Shown here one piece after another: positions 5,016 to 31,942 of a stretch of 55,146 nucleotides of DNA. Source of the DNA: an uncultured Eubacteriales bacterium (lineage in GTDB: Bacteria; Bacillota; Clostridia; Christensenellales; Pumilibacteraceae). Every line of letters starts with the position of its first letter. The stretch's first letter is position 1. Under the pieces are notes generated by a model that was given only the letters and a program-made list of their open reading frames with translations, did not search any database and was not told the origin of the DNA. Location: NCBI GenBank assembly GCA_902783025.1, contig CACZPH010000048.1:1-55146 (forward strand). The letters run 5' to 3'. Both the position numbers and the translations under genes were made by a program.

Positions 5016-5967
5016 TTTCCTTTACCTCCTCCGCGATAGTTTCGTCGTTTTCCTTTAACTCGACGTCATCGTTTTCCGCGTTTTTGTTGAGTTTTACTTT
5101 CGAAAAATAAGTTTTCTTAAAGTAAGGAATCGACAAGAATACGGCTACTACGACCGCCGACAGCATTTTGAGAAGATCGGTATCGAAGCCGAGCGCTATT
5201 ACGAGTTGATATACCACGTAGTAGACTATTCCTCCGATCGAGCAAGACAGCAACTGAACGAGAAAGTTCCGCGAAAGTTTGCTTACTATCGCGCCGCCGA
5301 TAATGACCGCCGCAAGACCTATTACGATAGCGCCTCTTCCCATATTGATATCGGTAAAGCCCTGATATTGACACAGTAACGCGCCGGAAAGCGCGACGAT
5401 ACCGTTAGACAGCATAAGACCGAGAACTTTGATAAAAGAAGTGTTTATGCCCTGCGCGCGGCTCATATTCTGGTTGTTGCCGGTAGCGCGGATCGAACAG
5501 CCGAGTTCGGTGCCGAAAAACCAATACAAAACGAGCGCTATCACCGCGGTAAAACCGGCTAAAACGAGCAGCGAAACCGGAATATTGAGTTGAGTGATTA
5601 TTACCGAAAACGTACGGCTGGGAATGGCTACGTTAGCCTTGCCGAGCACCTTGAGATTTACCGACCACAAAATCAGCTGAGTAAGTATTCCCGAAAGTAT
5701 TGCGGGTATACCGAGAAGCGTGTGAAAAATTCCCGTAACGAATCCTGCGGCGACGCCCGCCAAAAAAGCGAAGATCATCGCTACCGGAGCGGGAACTCCG
5801 GCGATAAGCGCGACGGAAAAAACTACGGCTCCCGTGCAGATGGATCCGTCCACGGTAAGATCCGCTATATCGAGGACCTTGTAGGTAATATATACGCCGA
5901 TAGCCATCAGACCCCAGATAAGGCCTTGCGCGACGGCTCCCGGCAAGGAGTTGATAAAAGCCAGCAT
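5008..5967 (-). CDS. ABC transporter permease (COG4120 type)
   Basis: About 9 hydrophobic helices. GGAG RBS present. Lies between the binding-protein and ATPase genes in the same operon. Confidence 0.8.
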   Translation of the reverse strand: MLAFINSLPGAVAQGLIWGLMAIGVYITYKVLDIADLTVDGSICTGAVVFSVALIAGVPAPVAMIFAFLAGVAAGFVTGIFHTLLGIPAILSGILTQLILWSVNLKVLGKANVAIPSRTFSVIITQLNIPVSLLVLAGFTAVIALVLYWFFGTELGCSIRATGNNQNMSRAQGINTSFIKVLGLMLSNGIVALSGALLCQYQGFTDINMGRGAIVIGLAAVIIGGAIVSKLSRNFLVQLLSCSIGGIVYYVVYQLVIALGFDTDLLKMLSAVVVAVFLSIPYFKKTYFSKVKLNKNAENDDVELKENDETIAEEVKENE

Positions 5968-5979
5968 ATTATCTCCGGA

Positions 5980-6984
5980 TTATTGTATGGGTTGATAAGA
6001 AGAAGGAACGGTTATACCCGCTTTTTCGCAAAGTTCGGGATTGTAGACGTAAACGGGGTTTTCGTCGGCGGCTACCGCCATTGTGGAAATGTCGGCTTTG
6101 CCGAGAAGGACCTGAGCCGCCATTTTGCCGGTCTTGACGCCGATATTGTAGTAGCTTATCGACAGCGCCGCTATTCCGCAGCCTCTGCAAATACCTTCCT
6201 CGCCCGCGATTATCGGAACGACTTTGCCCGAAGAGGGATAGCAGATGTTGCGTATGATCTCGGTATTGCTCGCCGCCGCGTTGTCGGTAGGAACGTAAAG
6301 CGCGTCGCAAGCGTTGTACGCGCTCGTAACCACCGTCGCTATGTCGTTGGAATCCGAGAACGAGTACAGCGAAACGTTCTTGCCTTTTTGTTCCAAAAAT
6401 TTCTTGACTTGCTTTATCTGATAGTCGGAGTTAGGCTCCGCCGAGCAGTAAATAAGACCTATTTTGTCAGCCGACGGAACGAGCGAAGTTATCATTTCGG
6501 CTTGTTTGTCAAGAGGAGCGAGGTCGCTCGTGCCCGAAACGTTGCCGCCCACCACGCCGTTGTAGTTTTTCAGCGAAAGAGCCACGCCGTATTCGGTGAT
6601 CGAGGTACCCAAAACCGGAATGGTCTCGGTCGCGTTGTACGCTGCCTGAAGCGCCGCGGTCGCGTTAGCCATAATAAGGTCAACGTCCGAAGACACGAAA
6701 CTGTTGACGATAGTCGAGCAGATAGCCGAGTCGCCCTGTGCGTTTTGCTCCCTGAATTCCACGGTCCTGCCCGCCGCCGAAAGTTCCTCGGCAAGCGAAT
6801 CCCTGAATCCCTGCGTAGCCGCGTCGAGCGCGGGATGCTGAACGAGCTGGCAAATGCCGACCACGTATTTTTCCTTGTCGGGGTTTACCTTGATCTTCTT
6901 CGTCGCGGGAGCGCAACCGACCGCGAAAGCGCCTATCACGAGAGCGCACGCGGCGGCAAACACCGATCTTAACGTCTTTTTCAT
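5980..6984 (-). CDS. ABC transporter substrate-binding lipoprotein (COG2984 type)
   Basis: Signal peptide with lipobox (LVIGAFAVGC). The periplasmic-binding-fold sequence is typical of the uncharacterised Trp/Tyr-linked ABC family. AAGGAG RBS present. Confidence 0.8.
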   Translation of the reverse strand: MKKTLRSVFAAACALVIGAFAVGCAPATKKIKVNPDKEKYVVGICQLVQHPALDAATQGFRDSLAEELSAAGRTVEFREQNAQGDSAICSTIVNSFVSSDVDLIMANATAALQAAYNATETIPVLGTSITEYGVALSLKNYNGVVGGNVSGTSDLAPLDKQAEMITSLVPSADKIGLIYCSAEPNSDYQIKQVKKFLEQKGKNVSLYSFSDSNDIATVVTSAYNACDALYVPTDNAAASNTEIIRNICYPSSGKVVPIIAGEEGICRGCGIAALSISYYNIGVKTGKMAAQVLLGKADISTMAVAADENPVYVYNPELCEKAGITVPSSYQPIQ

Positions 6985-25229: not shown

Positions 25230-26003
25230 ATGCCTATACTTGTCAAAGCAAAAATCGAAAACCGCGACAGACTGAGCGTTTATCCTTTCTTTTCTAAACT
25301 GTTCCGCGACGGTTTTACGGTGGAATTCGATCCCATAACGATCATCGCCGGCGAAAACGGCGTGGGAAAATCGACTTTTCTCGAGTCTCTTGCCCATTCG
25401 ATAGGCTTTTCGTCGTTTGGCGGAGGCATAAATCACACGACGATCTTGGGCGGCGTGAATTATGCCATAGTACACGGCAACAACCCATGGGAAACGCTAA
25501 AGGAGTCGGCGGAAGAGGACGACGATCTGATTTCGCAGATCGACGATTGCACGCTCTCCGATTATATGAAACTATCCTGGCAATACAAAACGAAAAAAGG
25601 CTGGTTTGTCCGCGCCGAGACATTTGCCGCGCTCGTCAGCATAGGGCTTAAGGATTTTTACGCGGGAGATAGGAGCCACGGCGAAGGGATCGTCGACGTT
25701 TTAAACGGGATAGAGCAAGAGGGGATATATATTCTCGACGAACCCGAGTCGGGTTTGTCCCCGAGCAAAATGATGCATATGATGCTCATTATTTCCCAAA
25801 AACAGAAACAATACGGCGCGCAGTTTATTATTTCCACGCACAACCCTATGCTTATGAGTATTCCGGGCGCGAAATTACTGTATATGACGACGGACGAAAT
25901 AAAACGGGTTGCGCCGGAGGAAACGCCGCACTTTCAGTTGACTAAGTATTTTTTGAATAATCCGGAAGGCTTCATAAACAAACTTTTTTCGGACGACGAG
26001 TGA
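25230..26003 (+). CDS. AAA/ABC-like ATPase (COG3910-type predicted ATPase)
   Basis: Walker A GENGVGKST and Walker B IYILDEPESGLSP. The start lies 3 nt after the HAD stop. Confidence 0.7.
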   Translation: MPILVKAKIENRDRLSVYPFFSKLFRDGFTVEFDPITIIAGENGVGKSTFLESLAHSIGFSSFGGGINHTTILGGVNYAIVHGNNPWETLKESAEEDDDLISQIDDCTLSDYMKLSWQYKTKKGWFVRAETFAALVSIGLKDFYAGDRSHGEGIVDVLNGIEQEGIYILDEPESGLSPSKMMHMMLIISQKQKQYGAQFIISTHNPMLMSIPGAKLLYMTTDEIKRVAPEETPHFQLTKYFLNNPEGFINKLFSDDE

Positions 26004-26069
26004 TCCGACTAAAAGCAAAAGGGAAAAATTTTTCCAAAACATCCTTCGACGGAAAAACCGCAAAATTCC

Positions 26070-26098
26070 TTGACAAAATATTTTGCGTGTGGTACTAT
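26070..26098 (+). promoter_or_regulatory. Promoter of tRNA-Ser
   Basis: TTGACA (26070-26075), 17-nt spacer, TGgTACTAT (26090-26098). Confidence 0.6.
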
Positions 26099-26123
26099 AT
26101 TAGGGCATATTTGGGATAGGCAT

Positions 26124-26218
26124 GGAGAAATACCCAAGAGGCTATAAGGGGACCCCCTGCTAAGGGGTTAGTACGGGCTTTACCTGTAGCGCGAGTTCGA
26201 ATCTCGCTTTCTCCGCCA
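26124..26218 (+). tRNA. tRNA-Ser (anticodon GCU), class II with long variable arm, CCA encoded
   Basis: Hand-folded. Acceptor GGAGAAA/TTTCTCC. Anticodon stem ACCCC/GGGGT with loop CTGCTAA. Variable arm TACGGG-CTTTA-CCTGTA. T arm GCGAG-TTCGAAT-CTCGC, then GCCA. Confidence 0.9.
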
Positions 26219-26260
26219 CGAAAAGGGCAATCGCTTGATTGCCCTTTTTCCGTGGGGAGA
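26211..26260 (+). repeat. Left copy of the 50-bp perfect direct repeat (att-like)
   Basis: CTCCGCCACGAAAAGGGCAATCGCTTGATTGCCCTTTTTCCGTGGGGAGA is identical to 30902-30951. It includes the last 8 nt of tRNA-Ser. Confidence 0.9.
26221..26249 (+). terminator. tRNA-Ser terminator (inside the direct repeat)
   Basis: AAGGGCAATC / GCTT loop / GATTGCCCTT followed by TTT. Confidence 0.75.
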
Positions 26261-26303
26261 AAGCGAGAAGGAGAACTTTGACTTTATACAGATTTTGGCT
26301 TTC

Positions 26304-26359
26304 GGCGGGTGCTTGACCGCGGAGCAAAGCGACGCGCTTGTATTAGTCAAGCACCCGCC
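26304..26359. repeat. 14-bp perfect inverted repeat, GC-rich
   Basis: GGCGGGTGCTTGAC (26304-26317) / GTCAAGCACCCGCC (26346-26359) with a 28-nt spacer. It lies just inside the left island border. Confidence 0.7.
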
Positions 26360-26403
26360 ATAGTGCCATTTGTAAATTTTTTGTTAATATGATAAAGATT
26401 TGC

Positions 26404-26437
26404 TTGCTATTATTCGTGATTTAGAATATAATATTCT
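26404..26437 (+). promoter_or_regulatory. Island operon promoter with an overlapping 15-bp palindrome (candidate operator)
   Basis: TTGCTA (26404-26409), 17-nt spacer, TATAAT (26427-26432). The perfect palindrome AGAATATAATATTCT (26423-26437) covers the -10 box. Confidence 0.55.
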
Positions 26438-26459
26438 TATAAAAATTCGAGGTGATATT

Positions 26460-27527
26460 ATGTTGAGTTTTATGTCCGCGAAAGAAGCCGCTGAAAAATG
26501 GGATATCTCTCAAAGAAGAGTTGCAATACTGTGTTCCGAAAATCGTATTGACGGAGCGATGATGGTCGGAAATATGTGGATCATCCCGTCTACTGCCGAA
26601 AAACCGATTGATAAAAGAACTGTTCGTTATGAAAAGGCAAGAAAGGTTACACTTAAGCCATTTGTAAAATGGGTAGGTGGTAAAAGTCAACTTGTTGAAC
26701 AGATAGAAAAAATGTTACCGTCTGACGGGGAAAAAGTTTTGACTAAATATGCAGAACCCATGATAGGTGGCGGTGCGCTTTTCTTCACTATTCTCTCAAA
26801 ATATGATTTTGAAGAGCTTTATATAAGCGACATAAACCCCGAATTGATAAACGCATATCAAGCTATAAAAAGCGACGTAGATAGTTTAATTGAAAAACTT
26901 AATGAAATGCAAATGACTTTTTTGCCTATGGATGAAAACGGCAGAAAGTATTTCTATTATAGTGTGCGCGAAAAGTTTAATTCCACCGTTTTATCGGCGG
27001 AGACTGCTACCGAAAAAGCCGCACAATTTGTTTTCTTGAATAAAACTTGTTTCAATGGCTTATATCGTGTAAATAGAAAAGGTCAATTTAACGTTCCTAT
27101 GGGTGCATACAAAAACCCGACTATTTGTGATAATGAAAATTTACGCAACATTCACGAAGCGTTGCAAAACGTAACAATAGTTTGCGGTGATTATTCGCTT
27201 TCGAAATCGTTCATAGATAAAGATACTTTCGTATATCTTGATCCCCCTTATCGTCCTATTTCCGAAACATCTGCATTTACTTCATATAATTCGGAATCTT
27301 TTGATGATAACGAGCAGATACGACTTGCACAGTTTATTGATGAAATCAACAAGTTGGGAGCAAAGATTGTTTTAAGCAATTCCGATCCGAAAAATGTAAA
27401 CGAAGAAGATAACTTCTTTGATGATTTATATAAAAACTATAAAATAAATCGTGTTGAAGCAACTCGAGCAATAAACAGCAAAGGCGATAAACGCGGAAAA
27501 ATAAATGAATTGCTTATCTGCAACTAA
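26460..27527 (+). CDS. Dam-like (DpnM-type, GATC) N6-adenine DNA methyltransferase with N-terminal HTH extension
   Basis: KPFVKWVGGKSQL, AEPMIGGGALFF and the catalytic YLDPPY are Dam-type motifs. About 60 extra N-terminal residues (SAKEAAEKWDISQRRVAILCSENRIDGAMMVGNMWIIP) resemble an excisionase/MerR-type HTH. Confidence 0.85.
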   Translation: MLSFMSAKEAAEKWDISQRRVAILCSENRIDGAMMVGNMWIIPSTAEKPIDKRTVRYEKARKVTLKPFVKWVGGKSQLVEQIEKMLPSDGEKVLTKYAEPMIGGGALFFTILSKYDFEELYISDINPELINAYQAIKSDVDSLIEKLNEMQMTFLPMDENGRKYFYYSVREKFNSTVLSAETATEKAAQFVFLNKTCFNGLYRVNRKGQFNVPMGAYKNPTICDNENLRNIHEALQNVTIVCGDYSLSKSFIDKDTFVYLDPPYRPISETSAFTSYNSESFDDNEQIRLAQFIDEINKLGAKIVLSNSDPKNVNEEDNFFDDLYKNYKINRVEATRAINSKGDKRGKINELLICN

Positions 27528-27540
27528 AGGAGTATTTTTT

Positions 27541-28416
27541 ATGAGAGGAAAAACCATAAATTTTTTTCTAATTGACGGAGAGCCTACAAAGAGAATAAAA
27601 TGTACTCTTCAAAATTGGACGGGTATTGTTTATAAAATTCCACGAGCAATGTTAGATAACTGCAAGGACGGAACGAGTGATATTGTTCGCCATCTTAAAC
27701 AGACAGGTATTTATTTCCTGCTCGGAGAAGATTCTGAAAGCGGCGAGAAGATGATCTATATTGGACAAGCCGTTGTTAGAAAAAACGGAGAAGGTTTATT
27801 ATGTCGCATTCAAGAACATAAACGTAACAATAAGGAAAAATATTGGAGTGAATGGAATGAGGTTATAGTTCTCACCACGCAGAATAATTCATTTGGACCA
27901 ACTGAAATTAGTTATTTAGAGAATCAGTTCACGTCACTTGCAAAAGAATCTCATCGATATATAGTAAAAAACGGCAATGAACCTAATCAAGGAAACATTA
28001 CCGAAGAGAAAGAAAGCGAGTTATCTGAGTATATTGATTATGCAAAAATGATAATTGGCGTGCTTGGTCACGTGGTATTCGATCCCATTGTAAAAGATAA
28101 AGAAAAAAGGAACGCCGATGAAAATACTGTTGTTTTTACATATAAAGGAAAATTAAAAGCAAATGGCATTATAACAGATGAGGGTTTTGCCCTTTTAAAA
28201 GGTAGCGAACTCAATCCCACAATTAGTAAAAGTGCCCATTCGTTCACAATAAAAGCTCGTAAATCATATGGCAATTTGATTGATGAAAACTATCGGACAA
28301 CTGAAGACATTTTGTTCTCAAGTCCATCTGCCGCAGCCGGGTTTGTTGGCGGTTGCAGTTTAAGCGGTAATGTTATGTGGGTAACTGCAGACGGGAAAAC
28401 ACCAAAAGATTTTTGA
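27541..28416 (+). CDS. GIY-YIG nuclease-like protein with C-terminal DUF4357-like domain
   Basis: GIY (TGIYFLLG), YIG (MIYIGQA), then R/H (CRIQEHKR) and E (ISYLENQF). C-terminus FSSPSAAAGFVGGCSLSGNVMW. AAAGGAG RBS 8 nt upstream of the ATG. Confidence 0.65.
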   Translation: MRGKTINFFLIDGEPTKRIKCTLQNWTGIVYKIPRAMLDNCKDGTSDIVRHLKQTGIYFLLGEDSESGEKMIYIGQAVVRKNGEGLLCRIQEHKRNNKEKYWSEWNEVIVLTTQNNSFGPTEISYLENQFTSLAKESHRYIVKNGNEPNQGNITEEKESELSEYIDYAKMIIGVLGHVVFDPIVKDKEKRNADENTVVFTYKGKLKANGIITDEGFALLKGSELNPTISKSAHSFTIKARKSYGNLIDENYRTTEDILFSSPSAAAGFVGGCSLSGNVMWVTADGKTPKDF

Positions 28417-28427
28417 GGAGAAAACAG

Positions 28428-29288
28428 ATGAAAAGAGATTTTAACAAATGGCTTGATACATTCAAAAGTAGTATTTGCGACTATAAATTTTACGTTGACT
28501 TTGAAAAAGTTTACGGTAAAGTCGATAATATCAAAGTTGAGTTGAATATTCTTAACTCGCTTATCGGTTCAAAAAATATCGAAAGCGATTTCAAAAATCT
28601 TGTGGCGGAATATCCGAAAGTTTTGAAATGCATTCCTATTTTGCTTGCTGTCCGTAGTCGTGAAATATACGCGATCGACAGCGACGGCGAATATTGGTTT
28701 AATTTTGCAAAACATAATTATTCTACCGACGAATACATAATGTTTATGCGTAAAACGGGTTTATTCTCACTTATTTCGGAACACTTGATAAACAATCTCG
28801 TTGATTATGTTACAGGCGTAGAAGTCGGACTTGATAGCAACGGTCGTAAAAATCGCGGCGGTCATTTAATGGAAGATTTAGTAGAATCGTATCTTGTGCA
28901 AGCGGGGCTTCAAAGAAACATTGATTATTTCAAAGAAATGTATCTTTCCGACGTTGAAAAGCAATGGGGTTTGGACTTGTCGAGCATTTCAAATCAAGGT
29001 AAAGCGAAAAAACGTTTTGATTTTGTGGTTAAAAAAGATAAAACCGTTTACGCCGTCGAAGCAAATTTTTATTCGAGTCAAGGTTCAAAACTCAACGAAA
29101 CCGCAAGAAGTTATAAAACTATTGCGTTGGAAGCAAAAGAAATCGACGGCTTTGCATTCGTTTGGTTTACCGACGGTCAAGGATGGAAGTCCGCTCGCCA
29201 TAATCTTGAAGAAACGTTTGACGTTTTGGATAATATGTACTGCATTACCGATATGGAAAACGGTATAGTAAAGGAACTTTTCAAGTAA
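28428..29288 (+). CDS. DpnII/MboI-family type II restriction endonuclease (GATC)
   Basis: Close to my recollection of DpnII: LNSLIGSKNIE, NNLVDYVTGVEVGLDSNGRKNRGG, KRFDFVV, NFYSSQGSKLNETARSYK and WFTDGQGW. GAGGAG RBS present. Confidence 0.85.
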   Translation: MKRDFNKWLDTFKSSICDYKFYVDFEKVYGKVDNIKVELNILNSLIGSKNIESDFKNLVAEYPKVLKCIPILLAVRSREIYAIDSDGEYWFNFAKHNYSTDEYIMFMRKTGLFSLISEHLINNLVDYVTGVEVGLDSNGRKNRGGHLMEDLVESYLVQAGLQRNIDYFKEMYLSDVEKQWGLDLSSISNQGKAKKRFDFVVKKDKTVYAVEANFYSSQGSKLNETARSYKTIALEAKEIDGFAFVWFTDGQGWKSARHNLEETFDVLDNMYCITDMENGIVKELFK

Positions 29289-29289
29289 T

Positions 29290-30033
29290 ATGGCAAAGAA
29301 AAACATACCGTTACAGCCCGAAAATTTCGAACTCGAAACAAATACAGTTTGGGCGTTCCCCGATCGCGGTAAATGGGCTACACACGACGCTAAATATCGC
29401 GGAAATTGGTCGCCGTATATTCCTAGAAACCTAATTCTGCGTTACTCAAATGAGGGCGACACTGTTTTGGATCAGTTCGTCGGTGGCGGCACTACTGCCG
29501 TTGAGGCAAAACTGACAGGCAGAAATTTTATCGGTGTCGATATTAATCCGAATGCTCTTGAAATTACAAAAAGCAAATTGAATTTCGAGTGTGAATTTAA
29601 CCCGACAATAAAAATTGAGCAAGGCGATGCGCGTAATCTTTCGTCTATTGCGGATAATTCGATAGACCTTATTTGCACGCATCCGCCTTATGCCGATATT
29701 ATTCATTACAGCGAAGATATTGACGGCGATATGTCGCTTATGTCGATGAAAGATTTTTTATTCGAAATCGGCAAAGTCGCAGAAGAATGTTATCGGGTAT
29801 TAAAAAAAGATAAGTTTTGCGCTATACTTATGGGAGATACCCGCAAAAAGGGTATGGTTCAACCACTTGCTTTTGAAACGATGCGTATTTTTGAAATGGC
29901 AGGGTTCAAGACGAAAGAGATTATAATCAAAGAACAACACAATTGCAAAGCAACTGGCTATTGGAAAACAAACAGTATAAAGTTTAATTTTCTTTTACTC
30001 GCCCACGAGTATTTGTTTGTGTTTAAAAAATAA
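29290..30033 (+). CDS. Second DNA methyltransferase (N6/N4 MTase-like)
   Basis: SAM motif VLDQFVGGGTTAVEA lies upstream of the catalytic-type motif ICTHPPYADII. The start is 1 nt after the endonuclease stop. Confidence 0.7.
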   Translation: MAKKNIPLQPENFELETNTVWAFPDRGKWATHDAKYRGNWSPYIPRNLILRYSNEGDTVLDQFVGGGTTAVEAKLTGRNFIGVDINPNALEITKSKLNFECEFNPTIKIEQGDARNLSSIADNSIDLICTHPPYADIIHYSEDIDGDMSLMSMKDFLFEIGKVAEECYRVLKKDKFCAILMGDTRKKGMVQPLAFETMRIFEMAGFKTKEIIIKEQHNCKATGYWKTNSIKFNFLLLAHEYLFVFKK

Positions 30034-30045
30034 TTAATAAAGTAT

Positions 30046-30873
30046 ATGAACAATACAACTATTATTTTTTCAGATGAAGCAGGACAGTATTACAAAAAAC
30101 CAAATGACAAACAAATTATATCTGATCCATTTTATGTTCGTTCGGCGGTATATTTAACGACAGAAGAGTATATAGCCTTTCAAAAAGATATTATAACATT
30201 GAAGAAAAAATATAATCTGCCAATTAATGAGGAGATTAAATGGTCAGATATTTACGAGTTGCAAAAGAAACGCTATAGAGCCGATTTCTTAAAAGACTAT
30301 AATATAGATAAATTAAAACAATATATTACTGATTATATATCTATTGCCCACTTGAAACAATCTATAAAATATGTTTTTACAATTTCAGGTAATCGTTATC
30401 AAAACACGGCAGATAAAGAATATATTGTTTTTGCTCATTTGCAAAATATTTATCAGCGAGCACAATTTGACGCAACCGATGAGTCGAACGATTTTTATAT
30501 GGTTATTATTGATGATATGAATGAAACGGCATTAAATAATTTACGCCAAAGATGTTGTGACTTATTACATAATGGAGATAGATTTGTTGATTATTCTAAT
30601 TTAAACCAAAGCCTTTTAGTGGAAAAAAGTGAGCAAAGTGCTGGTATTCAAATAGCCGATTATGCAGCAGGGATTTTTAACTCTGTCGCAAAAAAATATA
30701 TACTTGAAAAAAATTCGTACGATTATGCCAATAGATTGTATTCAATGTATATAGCACCTAAAATAAGAAGAAAAAATAAAAAAATTTTGGGATATGGAAT
30801 AATGAAAATAACAAAAAATATGATAATACCTAACCTGAATGCACTAATCGAAGCAACGGAATCCTATTTATAG
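30046..30873 (+). CDS. DUF3800-like protein
   Basis: N-terminal IIFSDEAGQ (DE-x-G motif) and C-terminal GIQIADYAAG match the DUF3800 pattern as I recall it. This is the last gene of the island operon. Confidence 0.55.
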   Translation: MNNTTIIFSDEAGQYYKKPNDKQIISDPFYVRSAVYLTTEEYIAFQKDIITLKKKYNLPINEEIKWSDIYELQKKRYRADFLKDYNIDKLKQYITDYISIAHLKQSIKYVFTISGNRYQNTADKEYIVFAHLQNIYQRAQFDATDESNDFYMVIIDDMNETALNNLRQRCCDLLHNGDRFVDYSNLNQSLLVEKSEQSAGIQIADYAAGIFNSVAKKYILEKNSYDYANRLYSMYIAPKIRRKNKKILGYGIMKITKNMIIPNLNALIEATESYL

Positions 30874-30901
30874 AAAAATAATTCGATTTGCGTTACTATC
30901 G

Positions 30902-30951
30902 CTCCGCCACGAAAAGGGCAATCGCTTGATTGCCCTTTTTCCGTGGGGAGA
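30902..30951 (+). repeat. Right copy of the 50-bp perfect direct repeat (att-like)
   Basis: Base-for-base identical to 26211-26260. It includes a second copy of the terminator hairpin (30912-30940). Confidence 0.9.
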
Positions 30952-31025
30952 GAGGCTCGATTCTCACCGAACGCTTGCGCGTTCTGTTCCTCGCGCTTCG
31001 GGCATAGCCCTCGCGGGCTTTAGCT

Positions 31026-31051
31026 AAAAACAGTCCACCGGACTGTTTTTT
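31026..31051 (+). terminator. Hairpin terminator
   Basis: AAAAACAGTCC / short loop / GGACTGTTTTT. Confidence 0.6.
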
Positions 31052-31061
31052 ACGCATCGCC

Positions 31062-31077
31062 CTCGCTTTCCCCGCCA
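31062..31077 (+). repeat. Third, degenerate copy of the tRNA-Ser 3' end
   Basis: CTCGCTTTCCCCGCCA versus tRNA 26203-26218 CTCGCTTTCTCCGCCA (15/16). A hairpin terminator follows within 6 nt, as in the tRNA gene itself. Confidence 0.5.
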
Positions 31078-31082
31078 AGAGC

Positions 31083-31120
31083 AACCTAAATCGAACCCGT
31101 AAAGTTCGGTTTAGGTTTTT
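31083..31120 (+). terminator. Strong hairpin terminator
   Basis: 14-bp stem AACCTAAATCGAAC / GTTCGGTTTAGGTT (one G-U pair) followed by a T-run. Confidence 0.65.
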
Positions 31121-31297
31121 CTTTTGCAAAAATCCCGTGTTTTCCTACGTTTTTCGGCTGTCTTTCTTGTCCGGCGGCGTTCAAAAGGTGTTCGTACAGC
31201 AGTGTTCGTGGATCATTATAAAAGTCAGAGTGCGCTTTAAGTCAAGCGAAAAAACAAAAAAAATCCGCCGCCCGGCAACGGAGCGACGGGTTTTTGT

Positions 31298-31942
31298 TTA
31301 GTTTTCGGTGCCGAAGAGGTATTTTTCAAAGAGTTCTTTGGTTTTTTCTTTTCCTATCGCTTTGACGAACGCGTCGGTGGACGGACCGCCTTTTTCGAGC
31401 AGGCCGTTTACGTAGTAGCGCGCCTTTTCTCTTTTTCTTTGCTCGTCGGCTTGCGGAGCGGGCGAGGCAAGATACGTTTCGAAATGCTTAAGCGCGAGCG
31501 CGTCGACAGAGGCGGAGTTTTTCTTCTTGCCTTTTTTGCTTATCGACGACTTTAGTTTTATTTCGTCGTACCAATGTTTGCCCGGATCGCGTTCGGGAAG
31601 AGAAGCGAACTTTGCTTTTACTTCGTTTAGCTTACTCTCGTCAAAGGGCGTAAGGAGCGTGTCGTAAAGCTCGGCTATCAGCACGTCGTTGCCCATCGCC
31701 CTGATCCGGTCGTAAGAGTAAAGCGGCAGGTCTACGAGAAACGGGTCGACTATTACCGAATCCATTTTCATAAGTCCGAGCATGCCTTTTGCGCGTATTT
31801 CGGAAACTATTCCGAGTCCTTCGGCGCGGAAAGCGCGGATATGGAATTTCATGCCGTTCGCTTTGACTTCGGCAAACTCGCCCACGTCCGTTTCGGTCAG
31901 CGGATACTTGTCCGCTATGAGTTTCAGTAGTTGTTCCGTCAT
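31298..31942 (-). CDS. Hypothetical protein (214 aa), last gene of the operon
   Basis: Overlaps the upstream gene by ATGA. Soluble, with a lysine-rich central linker. No family was recognised. Confidence 0.6.
   Translation of the reverse strand: MTEQLLKLIADKYPLTETDVGEFAEVKANGMKFHIRAFRAEGLGIVSEIRAKGMLGLMKMDSVIVDPFLVDLPLYSYDRIRAMGNDVLIAELYDTLLTPFDESKLNEVKAKFASLPERDPGKHWYDEIKLKSSISKKGKKKNSASVDALALKHFETYLASPAPQADEQRKREKARYYVNGLLEKGGPSTDAFVKAIGKEKTKELFEKYLFGTEN

Follow-up and report, generated by a model that had tools for sequence, protein, structure and literature searches.

A DpnII-type restriction-modification operon with two accessory slots, a probable modular defence cassette in an uncultured Eubacteriales bacterium

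A contig of 55,146 nucleotides (nt) from an uncultured Eubacteriales bacterium (GenBank assembly GCA_902783025.1, contig CACZPH010000048.1), called the window below, carries five co-oriented open reading frames (ORFs), g1 to g5, in which the genes of a DpnII-type restriction-modification (R-M) system are combined with those of a GIY-YIG/DUF4357 protein (g2) and of a DUF3800 protein (g5). Comparison with related loci indicates that this locus is probably a modular, layered defence cassette with two accessory positions, slot 2 between the first methylase and the endonuclease and slot 5 after the second methylase, which are exchanged independently. The first-pass annotation of this DNA, made from the sequence letters, had described five genes in this order with gaps of 13, 11, 1 and 12 nt, in agreement with the ORF coordinates. 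The view that the five genes form one fixed new system is not supported, since the full set was found only in the window and, with another slot-2 gene, in one metagenome-assembled genome (MAG), and since the contents of slots 2 and 5 vary independently of the R-M genes around them.

A conventional GATC backbone

By its gene families, the backbone formed by g1 (M1), g3 (R) and g4 (M2) is predicted to be a conventional DpnII/MboI-type GATC R-M system. The g1 protein matched MethyltransfD12 (PF02086, 2.1e-66) and, above the cut-off, the Dam family TIGR00571 (3.2e-91), with a weak HTH_17 match at its N-terminus. The g3 protein matched DpnII (PF04556, 1.4e-108) over profile positions 1-277 of 278 and PADLOC REase_II (3.7e-101), and the g4 protein matched N6_N4_Mtase (PF01555, 1.7e-27) and PADLOC MTase_II (4e-118). 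PADLOC called g1 and g4 as Type II methylases, g3 as a Type II restriction endonuclease and g2 as a member of the candidate PDC-S14; g5 received no call. The domain assignments made from the letters were thus recovered by profile for D12, DUF4357, DpnII, N6_N4 and DUF3800, and for GIY-YIG by fold and not by Pfam. In the proposed mechanism, M1 and M2 would methylate GATC and the DpnII-family enzyme would cut unmethylated GATC.

Exchange at slot 2

A search with g2 returned 5,446 homologues at E<=1e-3, whose surroundings were viewed at five identity levels. The order D12 methylase, DUF4357, DpnII and N6_N4 methylase recurs around homologues with 88%, 73%, 68% and 58% identity. These four-gene cores occupy different chromosomal neighbourhoods in at least five lineages besides the window, with slot-2 gaps of 0-16 nt (11-13 nt in the window), so that the co-occurrence of g2 with DpnII-type genes in other genomes, raised as a check by the first-pass annotation, was found in the very same slot. 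The homologue with 55% identity stands alone, adjoining a prophage terminase. Plasmid-borne distant relatives (25-31% identity) are annotated 'GIY-YIG nuclease family protein'; one distant relative lies between hsdS and hsdR on an A. pittii plasmid and another beside a Type I system. These surroundings suggest that the g2 family is habitually embedded in restriction systems and that the DpnII-type embedding is a conserved variant.

The content of the slot changes on a constant backbone. An Acutalibacteraceae MAG (locus L026) is collinear with window positions 26398-27535 and 28416-30828 at about 78-79% nucleotide identity, and the break in homology coincides with the g2 ORF, which is replaced by an unrelated gene coding for a 280-residue Mrr_cat protein. 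A C-terminal domain common to g2 and this Mrr_cat protein was considered and rejected, as no similarity was found. Between locus L009 and loci L017-L020, the M1, R and M2 proteins are 94-98% identical and the slot-2 protein 54% identical. Such swaps argue for an independently evolving module and not for a co-evolved subunit.

Some further features of these cores were observed. In L019 an additional ORF of 181 residues without Pfam or PADLOC match is present between the DpnII gene and M2 (5669-6214), and may represent a third embedding position. The four-gene cores of L009-L020 are linked to a serine recombinase; in place of the helix-turn-helix (HTH) fused to M1 in the window, these loci have a small HTH_26 gene that is separate from M1 and overlaps its start, and a conserved ORF of about 80 residues without family match lies 3' of the variable cargo slot.

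The slot-2 protein g2

The DUF4357 domain of g2 was detected with an E-value of 5.6e-13 and 49.0 bits (Pfam cut-off 38.4) and was matched by 34 of 34 homologues, and the PDC-S14 model PDLC04925 covers the full length of the protein (residues 1-290, 2.7e-93). A GIY-YIG fold of the N-terminal half is supported by structure prediction. The predicted model (predicted local distance difference test, pLDDT, 88) has the core order beta-beta-alpha-beta-alpha, as in GIY-YIG enzymes, and Foldseek comparison with the viral structures of BFVD matched a GIY-YIG domain protein (probability 0.98), an intron-associated endonuclease (0.99) and several Seg-like homing endonucleases. Residues Y58, Y73, R80/R89, E127 and N144 are invariant in the 34 homologues, and hhalign placed the catalytic residues of g2 in register with the N-terminus of E. 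coli UvrC (E 0.003, probability 10%).

DUF4357 is fused to GmrSD and is also among the domains fused to McrB, both Type IV enzymes. By analogy, g2 would most likely be a stand-alone modification-sensing (Type IV-like) nuclease. Such a self-sufficient nuclease, reading some feature of foreign or modified DNA, would cover the DNA that escapes GATC restriction. Three roles had been envisaged for the extra genes, namely an embedded independent system, a second layer, or an addiction or regulatory module, and the first two fit best.

The slot-5 protein g5 and its link to restriction operons

The g5 protein matched DUF3800 at 1.2e-11 and 46 bits (Pfam cut-off 21). Its predicted model (pLDDT 82) matches RNase HII (1eke, probability 0.99) and RNase HIII (0.94-0.97), in agreement with what has been published on DUF3800. 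Residues D10, E11, D156, D178, E193, Q202 and D205 are invariant in the family, so that an active enzyme is likely. None of the eleven DUF3800-associated RNA motifs (Weinberg 2017) was detected in positions 25500-31800 with Rfam 15 at E<=1.

A word-indexed search gave 23 close relatives of g5 and a profile search 446 representative clusters. In eight of eight contexts, the window and the seven loci of Table 1, the DUF3800 gene lies directly 3' of restriction or methylase genes and in the same orientation, with a gap of 1-28 nt where read. As for g2, the co-occurrence check was thus positive, the g5 family being found after DpnII-type and other R-M operons.

Table 1. Genes directly upstream of g5 relatives at seven other loci
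Locus	Identity to g5	Upstream genes
L026	71%	D12/Mrr_cat/DpnII/N6_N4
L022	97%	DpnD-like/DpnI/truncated M2
L029	64%	NgoPII-family endonuclease/5-methylcytosine (m5C) methylase/HaeIII-family endonuclease
L034	65%	m5C methylase/HaeIII
L031	64%	N6_N4 methylase/221-residue gene without assignment
L033	55%	m5C methylase/Sau3AI-family endonuclease/Vsr
L159	28%	529-residue Type II methylase

Three of four unusually long DUF3800 family members carry N6_Mtase, HsdS or HSDR_N sequence N-terminal of DUF3800, which may reflect true fusions or gene calls that were run together. At L029 (5186-8828), the DUF3800 gene follows two different endonuclease genes of GGCC families (NgoPII and HaeIII) with one m5C methylase gene between them.

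In other lineages of the four-gene core, the position after M2 holds nothing, a pair of a cyclic oligonucleotide-based antiphage signalling system (CBASS; SAVED effector and cyclase), PDC-S69, a defence-associated reverse transcriptase (DRT-type) then Hachiman, PDC-S28, or Kiwa (KwaA/KwaB).

An exchange of the endonuclease itself was observed in L022-L025, where nucleotide homology to the window covers positions 26336-26624 and 29393-30912. The first gene, DpnD-like, has its first 56 residues 84% identical to the g1 HTH, residues 36-247 of g4 are kept at 93% identity and g5 at 97%; between these shared flanks, a DpnD-like domain and DpnI stand in place of the DpnII genes of the window (as in L022, 6159-8828, where the gene called for the M2 remnant codes for 138 residues). 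GATC methylation being lethal beside DpnI, the M2 remnant should be inactive. The retention of g5 beside the methyl-dependent DpnI indicates that DUF3800 is kept independently of the GATC methylation state.

Taken with the variety of upstream enzymes, g5 would most likely be a restriction-linked or independent effector nuclease that is indifferent to methylation specificity, with a benefit tied to restriction as such and not to a particular enzyme or methylation. A more specific proposal, which we make tentatively and hold to be rather doubtful, is that the DUF3800 clade is a dedicated, previously unrecognised R-M accessory, an RNase H-like nuclease acting downstream of restriction by enzymes of any type or specificity. 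It might, for example, process or destroy the DNA ends left by cleavage and thereby prevent their repair by phages. If so, the clade would constitute a new class of R-M helper alongside the C and Vsr genes. In a related proposal, the fixed slot between M1 and R may harbour guard nucleases that detect an attack on the R-M enzymes.

Relation to described systems

The order of the backbone in the window, M-R-M, is that of MboI. As in other DpnII/MboI systems, a Dam-family methylase, an N6_N4 methylase and a DpnII-family endonuclease are united in one operon. The characterised DpnII operon of Streptococcus pneumoniae consists of three genes, dpnMAB (PMC3812788), as had been stated from the letters; in contrast to this unit, the window adds two nuclease genes, and its M1 has a fused HTH. 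In pneumococcus too, a DpnI cassette replaces the DpnII genes between shared flanks (PMC3812788), but the breakpoints in L022-L025 fall inside genes of the cassette, near codon 56 of g1 and near codon 36 of g4, and not outside it.

The statement of the first-pass annotation that no system of this architecture had been described needs to be narrowed. Embedding in restriction-type operons is already described, for PrrC and by Payne et al. (2024), and g2 is itself a member of PDC-S14. The PDC candidates were defined by their embedding in bacteriophage exclusion (BREX), defence island system associated with R-M (DISARM) and Type I R-M systems ('guilt by embedding'; Payne et al. 2024, bioRxiv 10.1101/2024.01.29.577857), and PDC-S14 has no more than candidate status in that paper. 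It resembles g2 by a full-length family match and by embedding in a restriction-type operon; unlike the source systems, g2 resides in a Type II operon of the DpnII type, where a dedicated slot is conserved. PrrC, the latent anticodon nuclease of the Type I system EcoprrI, likewise is encoded between R-M genes, and a distant g2 relative is in the hsdS-hsdR slot, but g2 has no sequence or fold relation to PrrC and the slot-2 alleles are swapped on a constant backbone.

DUF3800 has been described as RNase H-like and as associated with retron type VII and with Cas12a2/Cas12a3 loci (TPR-DUF3800). These proteins share with g5 the Pfam family, the RNase H-like fold, the DE...QxxD motifs and the role of accessory to another defence system; in contrast, g5 is partnered by a restriction operon, with no reverse transcriptase, cas gene or TPR domain. 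A full-text literature search on DUF3800 gave no link to R-M in the titles and passages returned. Within the literature consulted in this way, we found no account of a Type II, DpnII-type operon in which a slot for embedded genes is conserved, of the exchange of systems behind M2, or of a DUF3800 clade consistently placed on restriction operons.

Alternative explanations

The position of slot 2 is fixed and tightly packed (0-16 nt in relatives), and the g2 homologue between hsdS and hsdR on the A. pittii plasmid occupies the place that prrC has in EcoprrI. PrrC is almost exclusively embedded in Type I R-M systems (Payne et al.), and the g5 clade is attached to restriction operons in all contexts examined. 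These facts are compatible with a PrrC-like guard, in which g2, and perhaps g5, would be held inactive by the R-M proteins and released by a phage anti-restriction protein, leading to abortive infection. We consider this unlikely, because near-identical backbones carry slot-2 alleles that are 54% identical, or an unrelated Mrr_cat gene, which speaks against co-evolved protein contacts, and because g2 relatives also occur alone. As the partners of g5 (DpnII, DpnI, HaeIII, NgoPII and Sau3AI) are structurally unrelated, a specific protein-protein lock is unlikely for g5 as well. Still less probable, in our view, is that the extra nucleases are further restriction endonucleases sharing the same self-protecting methylation, so that one inhibitor could not easily defeat all of them. 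GIY-YIG-fold Type II enzymes exist (Eco29kI and Hpy188I), and L029 offers two endonuclease families around one m5C methylase. Moreover, URI/GIY-YIG nucleases fused to a reader domain have been presented as restriction components of N6A systems (Iyer et al.). A fixed GATC specificity is nevertheless unlikely for g2, since its family is found alone or in Type I systems of varying specificity, and g5 persists beside DpnI, where GATC must be unmethylated.

We give very little credit to the idea that the extra genes serve the cassette itself, DUF3800 or g2 driving insertion at tRNA ends with long target duplication, or acting as an addiction module. Its appeal is that DUF3800 is RNase H-like, as are transposases and resolvases, that three DUF3800 cassettes are bounded by 47-53-nt repeats, two of them at the same tRNA-Ser position, that no recombinase is present inside the repeats, and that the 'insertion with long target duplication' of R-M systems has no known enzyme (PMC2853133). 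Against it, other repeat-flanked, hairpin-led cassettes of the clade lack DUF3800, serine recombinases accompany the four-gene cores that lack DUF3800, and the closest structural matches of g5 are RNase HII and RNase HIII, not transposases; elsewhere DUF3800 partners retron reverse transcriptases and Cas12a2/Cas12a3, which are effector contexts.

The preferred reading of a modular, layered cassette has its own difficulties. The g2 protein does not match the Pfam GIY-YIG family (PF01541) even at E<=10, nor any NCBIfam family; Foldseek against PDB gave no GIY-YIG match, and PDB sequence searches were uninformative. The term 'modification-sensing' is derived entirely from the fusion partners of DUF4357. 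DUF4357 was also compared with RAMA, a predicted reader of N6-methyladenine (Iyer et al.), as its possible identity; the RAMA matches are weak, found in 2 of 34 g2 homologues with a best E-value of 0.0034, and no MPND/RAMA structure was among the PDB Foldseek matches of g2. The constant position of slot 2 and its very short gaps could reflect functional coupling and not mere co-carriage, and the strict tie of the DUF3800 clade to R-M speaks for some dependence of g5 on restriction. The sample of contexts is small (six surroundings of g2 relatives and six of g5 relatives) and comes mostly from gut Clostridia metagenomes; by its relatives, the host would belong to Christensenellales or Acutalibacteraceae-like Clostridia. 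Finally, GATC is not depleted in the window (observed/expected 1.13), which is neutral on activity.

Implications

No bacterial defence is more common than R-M, and its Type II operons are generally regarded as closed units of two or three genes. The operon studied here would rather be a scaffold with two defined slots, in which nuclease genes or whole systems (CBASS, Kiwa, DRT and PADLOC candidates) are exchanged, and it suggests that layered defences against viruses are assembled in bacteria by the insertion of modules at fixed positions of a restriction operon. The principle of guilt by embedding is extended from Type I, BREX and DISARM to Type II systems. Two clonable candidates result, the GIY-YIG/DUF4357 nuclease recurrent in GATC systems and the DUF3800 clade, attached to a restriction operon in each of the contexts studied. 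DUF3800 has long been a puzzle, connected with eleven orphan RNA motifs, with retrons and with Cas12a2/a3, and its simple R-M-linked version would be an easy route to its biochemistry.

Locus anatomy and expression signals

The features of the locus are collected in Table 2. The GC content of the cassette is 31-40%, as compared with about 52% for the window. This low-GC island, its place behind tRNA-Ser and the flanking repeats are absent from the first-pass annotation.

Table 2. Features of the cassette and its boundaries
Feature	Coordinates	Strand	Description
tRNA-Ser(GCT)	26124-26218	+	ARAGORN; Rfam tRNA 52.4 bits; cassette inserted at its 3' end
Left 53-nt direct repeat	26211-26263		Last 8 nt of the tRNA and terminator hairpin
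GC-rich nested hairpin	26303-26372	+	Outer arms 26304-26317/26346-26359; conserved tail AnAGTGCCA; 5' of operon promoter
Best sigma-70-like promoter	26404-26432	+	TTGCTA-17-TATAAT
Palindrome	26423-26437		AGAATAT-A-ATATTCT; perfect, 15 bp, overlaps the -10 box
g1, M1	26460-27527	+	HTH (residues 1-56, N-terminal) fused to Dam-family D12 N6-adenine methylase
g2, slot 2	27541-28416	+	Predicted GIY-YIG-fold nuclease with C-terminal DUF4357; PADLOC candidate PDC-S14
g3, R	28428-29288	+	DpnII-family restriction endonuclease; Pfam DpnII, PADLOC REase_II
g4, M2	29290-30033	+	N6_N4 methylase, second methylase of DpnII/MboI-type systems
g5, slot 5	30046-30873	+	DUF3800 protein, RNase H-like fold; DE (N-terminal) and QxxD (C-terminal) motifs invariant
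Right 53-nt direct repeat	30902-30954		Hairpin 30912-30939 followed by T-run, likely operon terminator
Third tRNA 3'-end copy, degenerate	31062-31117	+	tRNA part 31062-31080, 89%; then terminator-like hairpin

The strongest sigma-70-like site lies 28 nt 5' of g1; the first-pass annotation had named one upstream promoter. Promoter-like matches are also present inside the operon, no commoner than in shuffled sequence. Co-transcription of g1-g5 from the upstream site alone is therefore plausible, not proven. The HTH of g1 may bind the palindrome over the -10 box as its operator, and M1 would then probably autoregulate its promoter. At the other end, the hairpin of the right repeat starts 39 nt 3' of the g5 stop codon.

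A weak terminator-like hairpin with a T-run was also noticed at 29996-30021, within the last codons of g4 and just 5' of the DUF3800 slot; it may be the leftover end of a four-gene core, or an attenuator. Directly 5' of the tRNA-Ser gene, outside the repeats and with a host-like GC content, a 257-residue AAA_15/AAA_21 ATPase is encoded (25230-26003); these domains are frequent in abortive-infection and defence ATPases. Low GC content was also seen at about 3-4 kb and 46-48 kb of the window; these parts contain GidB and small ORFs without family matches, and nothing related to the cassette. The window DNA is strongly short of GGCC (observed/expected 0.19) and CTAG (0.05), and the avoidance of GGCC fits the HaeIII/NgoPII-type cassettes of related genomes (L029 and L034).

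Probable insertion at tRNA ends

The two direct repeats are identical at 52 of 53 nt (98%) and enclose an insert of about 4.64 kb (26264-30901). A profile search gave no match of g1-g5 to recombinase families, so that the segment bounded by the repeats has no recognisable mobility gene. It would be a self-contained cassette, acquired horizontally and inserted at the 3' end of tRNA-Ser, and the degenerate third copy of the tRNA end is probably the remnant of an older insertion at the same site. Judged from the filled site alone, the insert resembles the R-M insertions described by Furuta, Abe and Kobayashi in 2010 (PMC2853133), which are short, low in GC, carry R and M without recognisable mobility gene, and are located at a tRNA in some cases; the insert is below their limit of 20 kb and its repeats exceed 30 bp (53 here, 46-47 bp in theirs). 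The repeats of the window start inside the tRNA 3' end, and site-specific integration in trans is possible.

DUF3800 cassettes flanked by 47-53-nt repeats of host terminator sequence were found in the window, L026 (4180-4229/8882-8931) and L034 (4805-4851/7892-7938). The insertion in L026 is at the same position of a tRNA-Ser gene as in the window; the anticodons (GGA in L026, GCT in the window) and the host terminators differ. More generally, DUF3800 cassettes sit 3' of tRNA-Ser, tRNA-Glu, tRNA-Ala or tmRNA. Small cassettes of the clade are flanked by direct repeats of 41-125 nt, with further loci in L059, L090, L093, L109 and L038, and tandem pairs of repeat-flanked units are present in L038 and L109. 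Several repeats begin at a tRNA 3' end (CTCCGCCA, CTCCACCA, TGCACCA, CTACCA) and run through the host-specific terminator; those of L034 and L093 start elsewhere. The repeat-flanked cassettes suggest that insertions took place one after another at tRNA ends, with no resident integrase.

A hairpin family at the 5' side of accessory cassettes

The nested hairpin upstream of the operon promoter belongs to a family composed of GGCGGGTGCTTGA, an inner stem of 7-10 bp, and TCAAGCACCCGCC-AnAGTGCCA, for which Rfam 15 has no entry. A hairpin specific to DUF3800 had been suspected because L031 and L034 share with the window only the hairpin and the DUF3800 gene; this was rejected, as no DUF3800 homologue was found in any of the at least 119 stretches bearing the core. 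The 18-nt core (17 specified bases) was found in at least 119 genome-contig stretches (L036-L154), to be compared with a chance expectation of about 69 in 596 Gb (596 Gb x 2 strands / 4^17). The context was AT-rich for 112 of 127 core matches. The loci with such context come almost entirely from MAGs of Christensenella, Coproplasma, Pumilibacter and other Clostridia, and one genome often has several of them. When the inner stems were counted sequence by sequence, 36 distinct inner segments were obtained in 40 copies with the pairing kept, and the median predicted fold energy is about -39 kcal/mol.

A TTGAAA-17-TATAAT promoter typically lies about 25-35 nt 3' of the hairpin, and the first ORFs that follow (L036-L154) are accessory genes of low GC content (about 28-45%). 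The 65 non-redundant downstream ORFs of at least 100 residues include 11 DNA methylases (5 m5C, 3 N6_N4, 2 Eco57I-type and 1 D12), 2 GmrSD, 1 EcoRV, 1 Mrr_N, 1 AAA_5 and 2 nSTAND3, and among the remaining ones surface LRR proteins and acetyltransferases. The hairpin seems to mark the 5' boundary of acquired cassettes that are rich in restriction genes.

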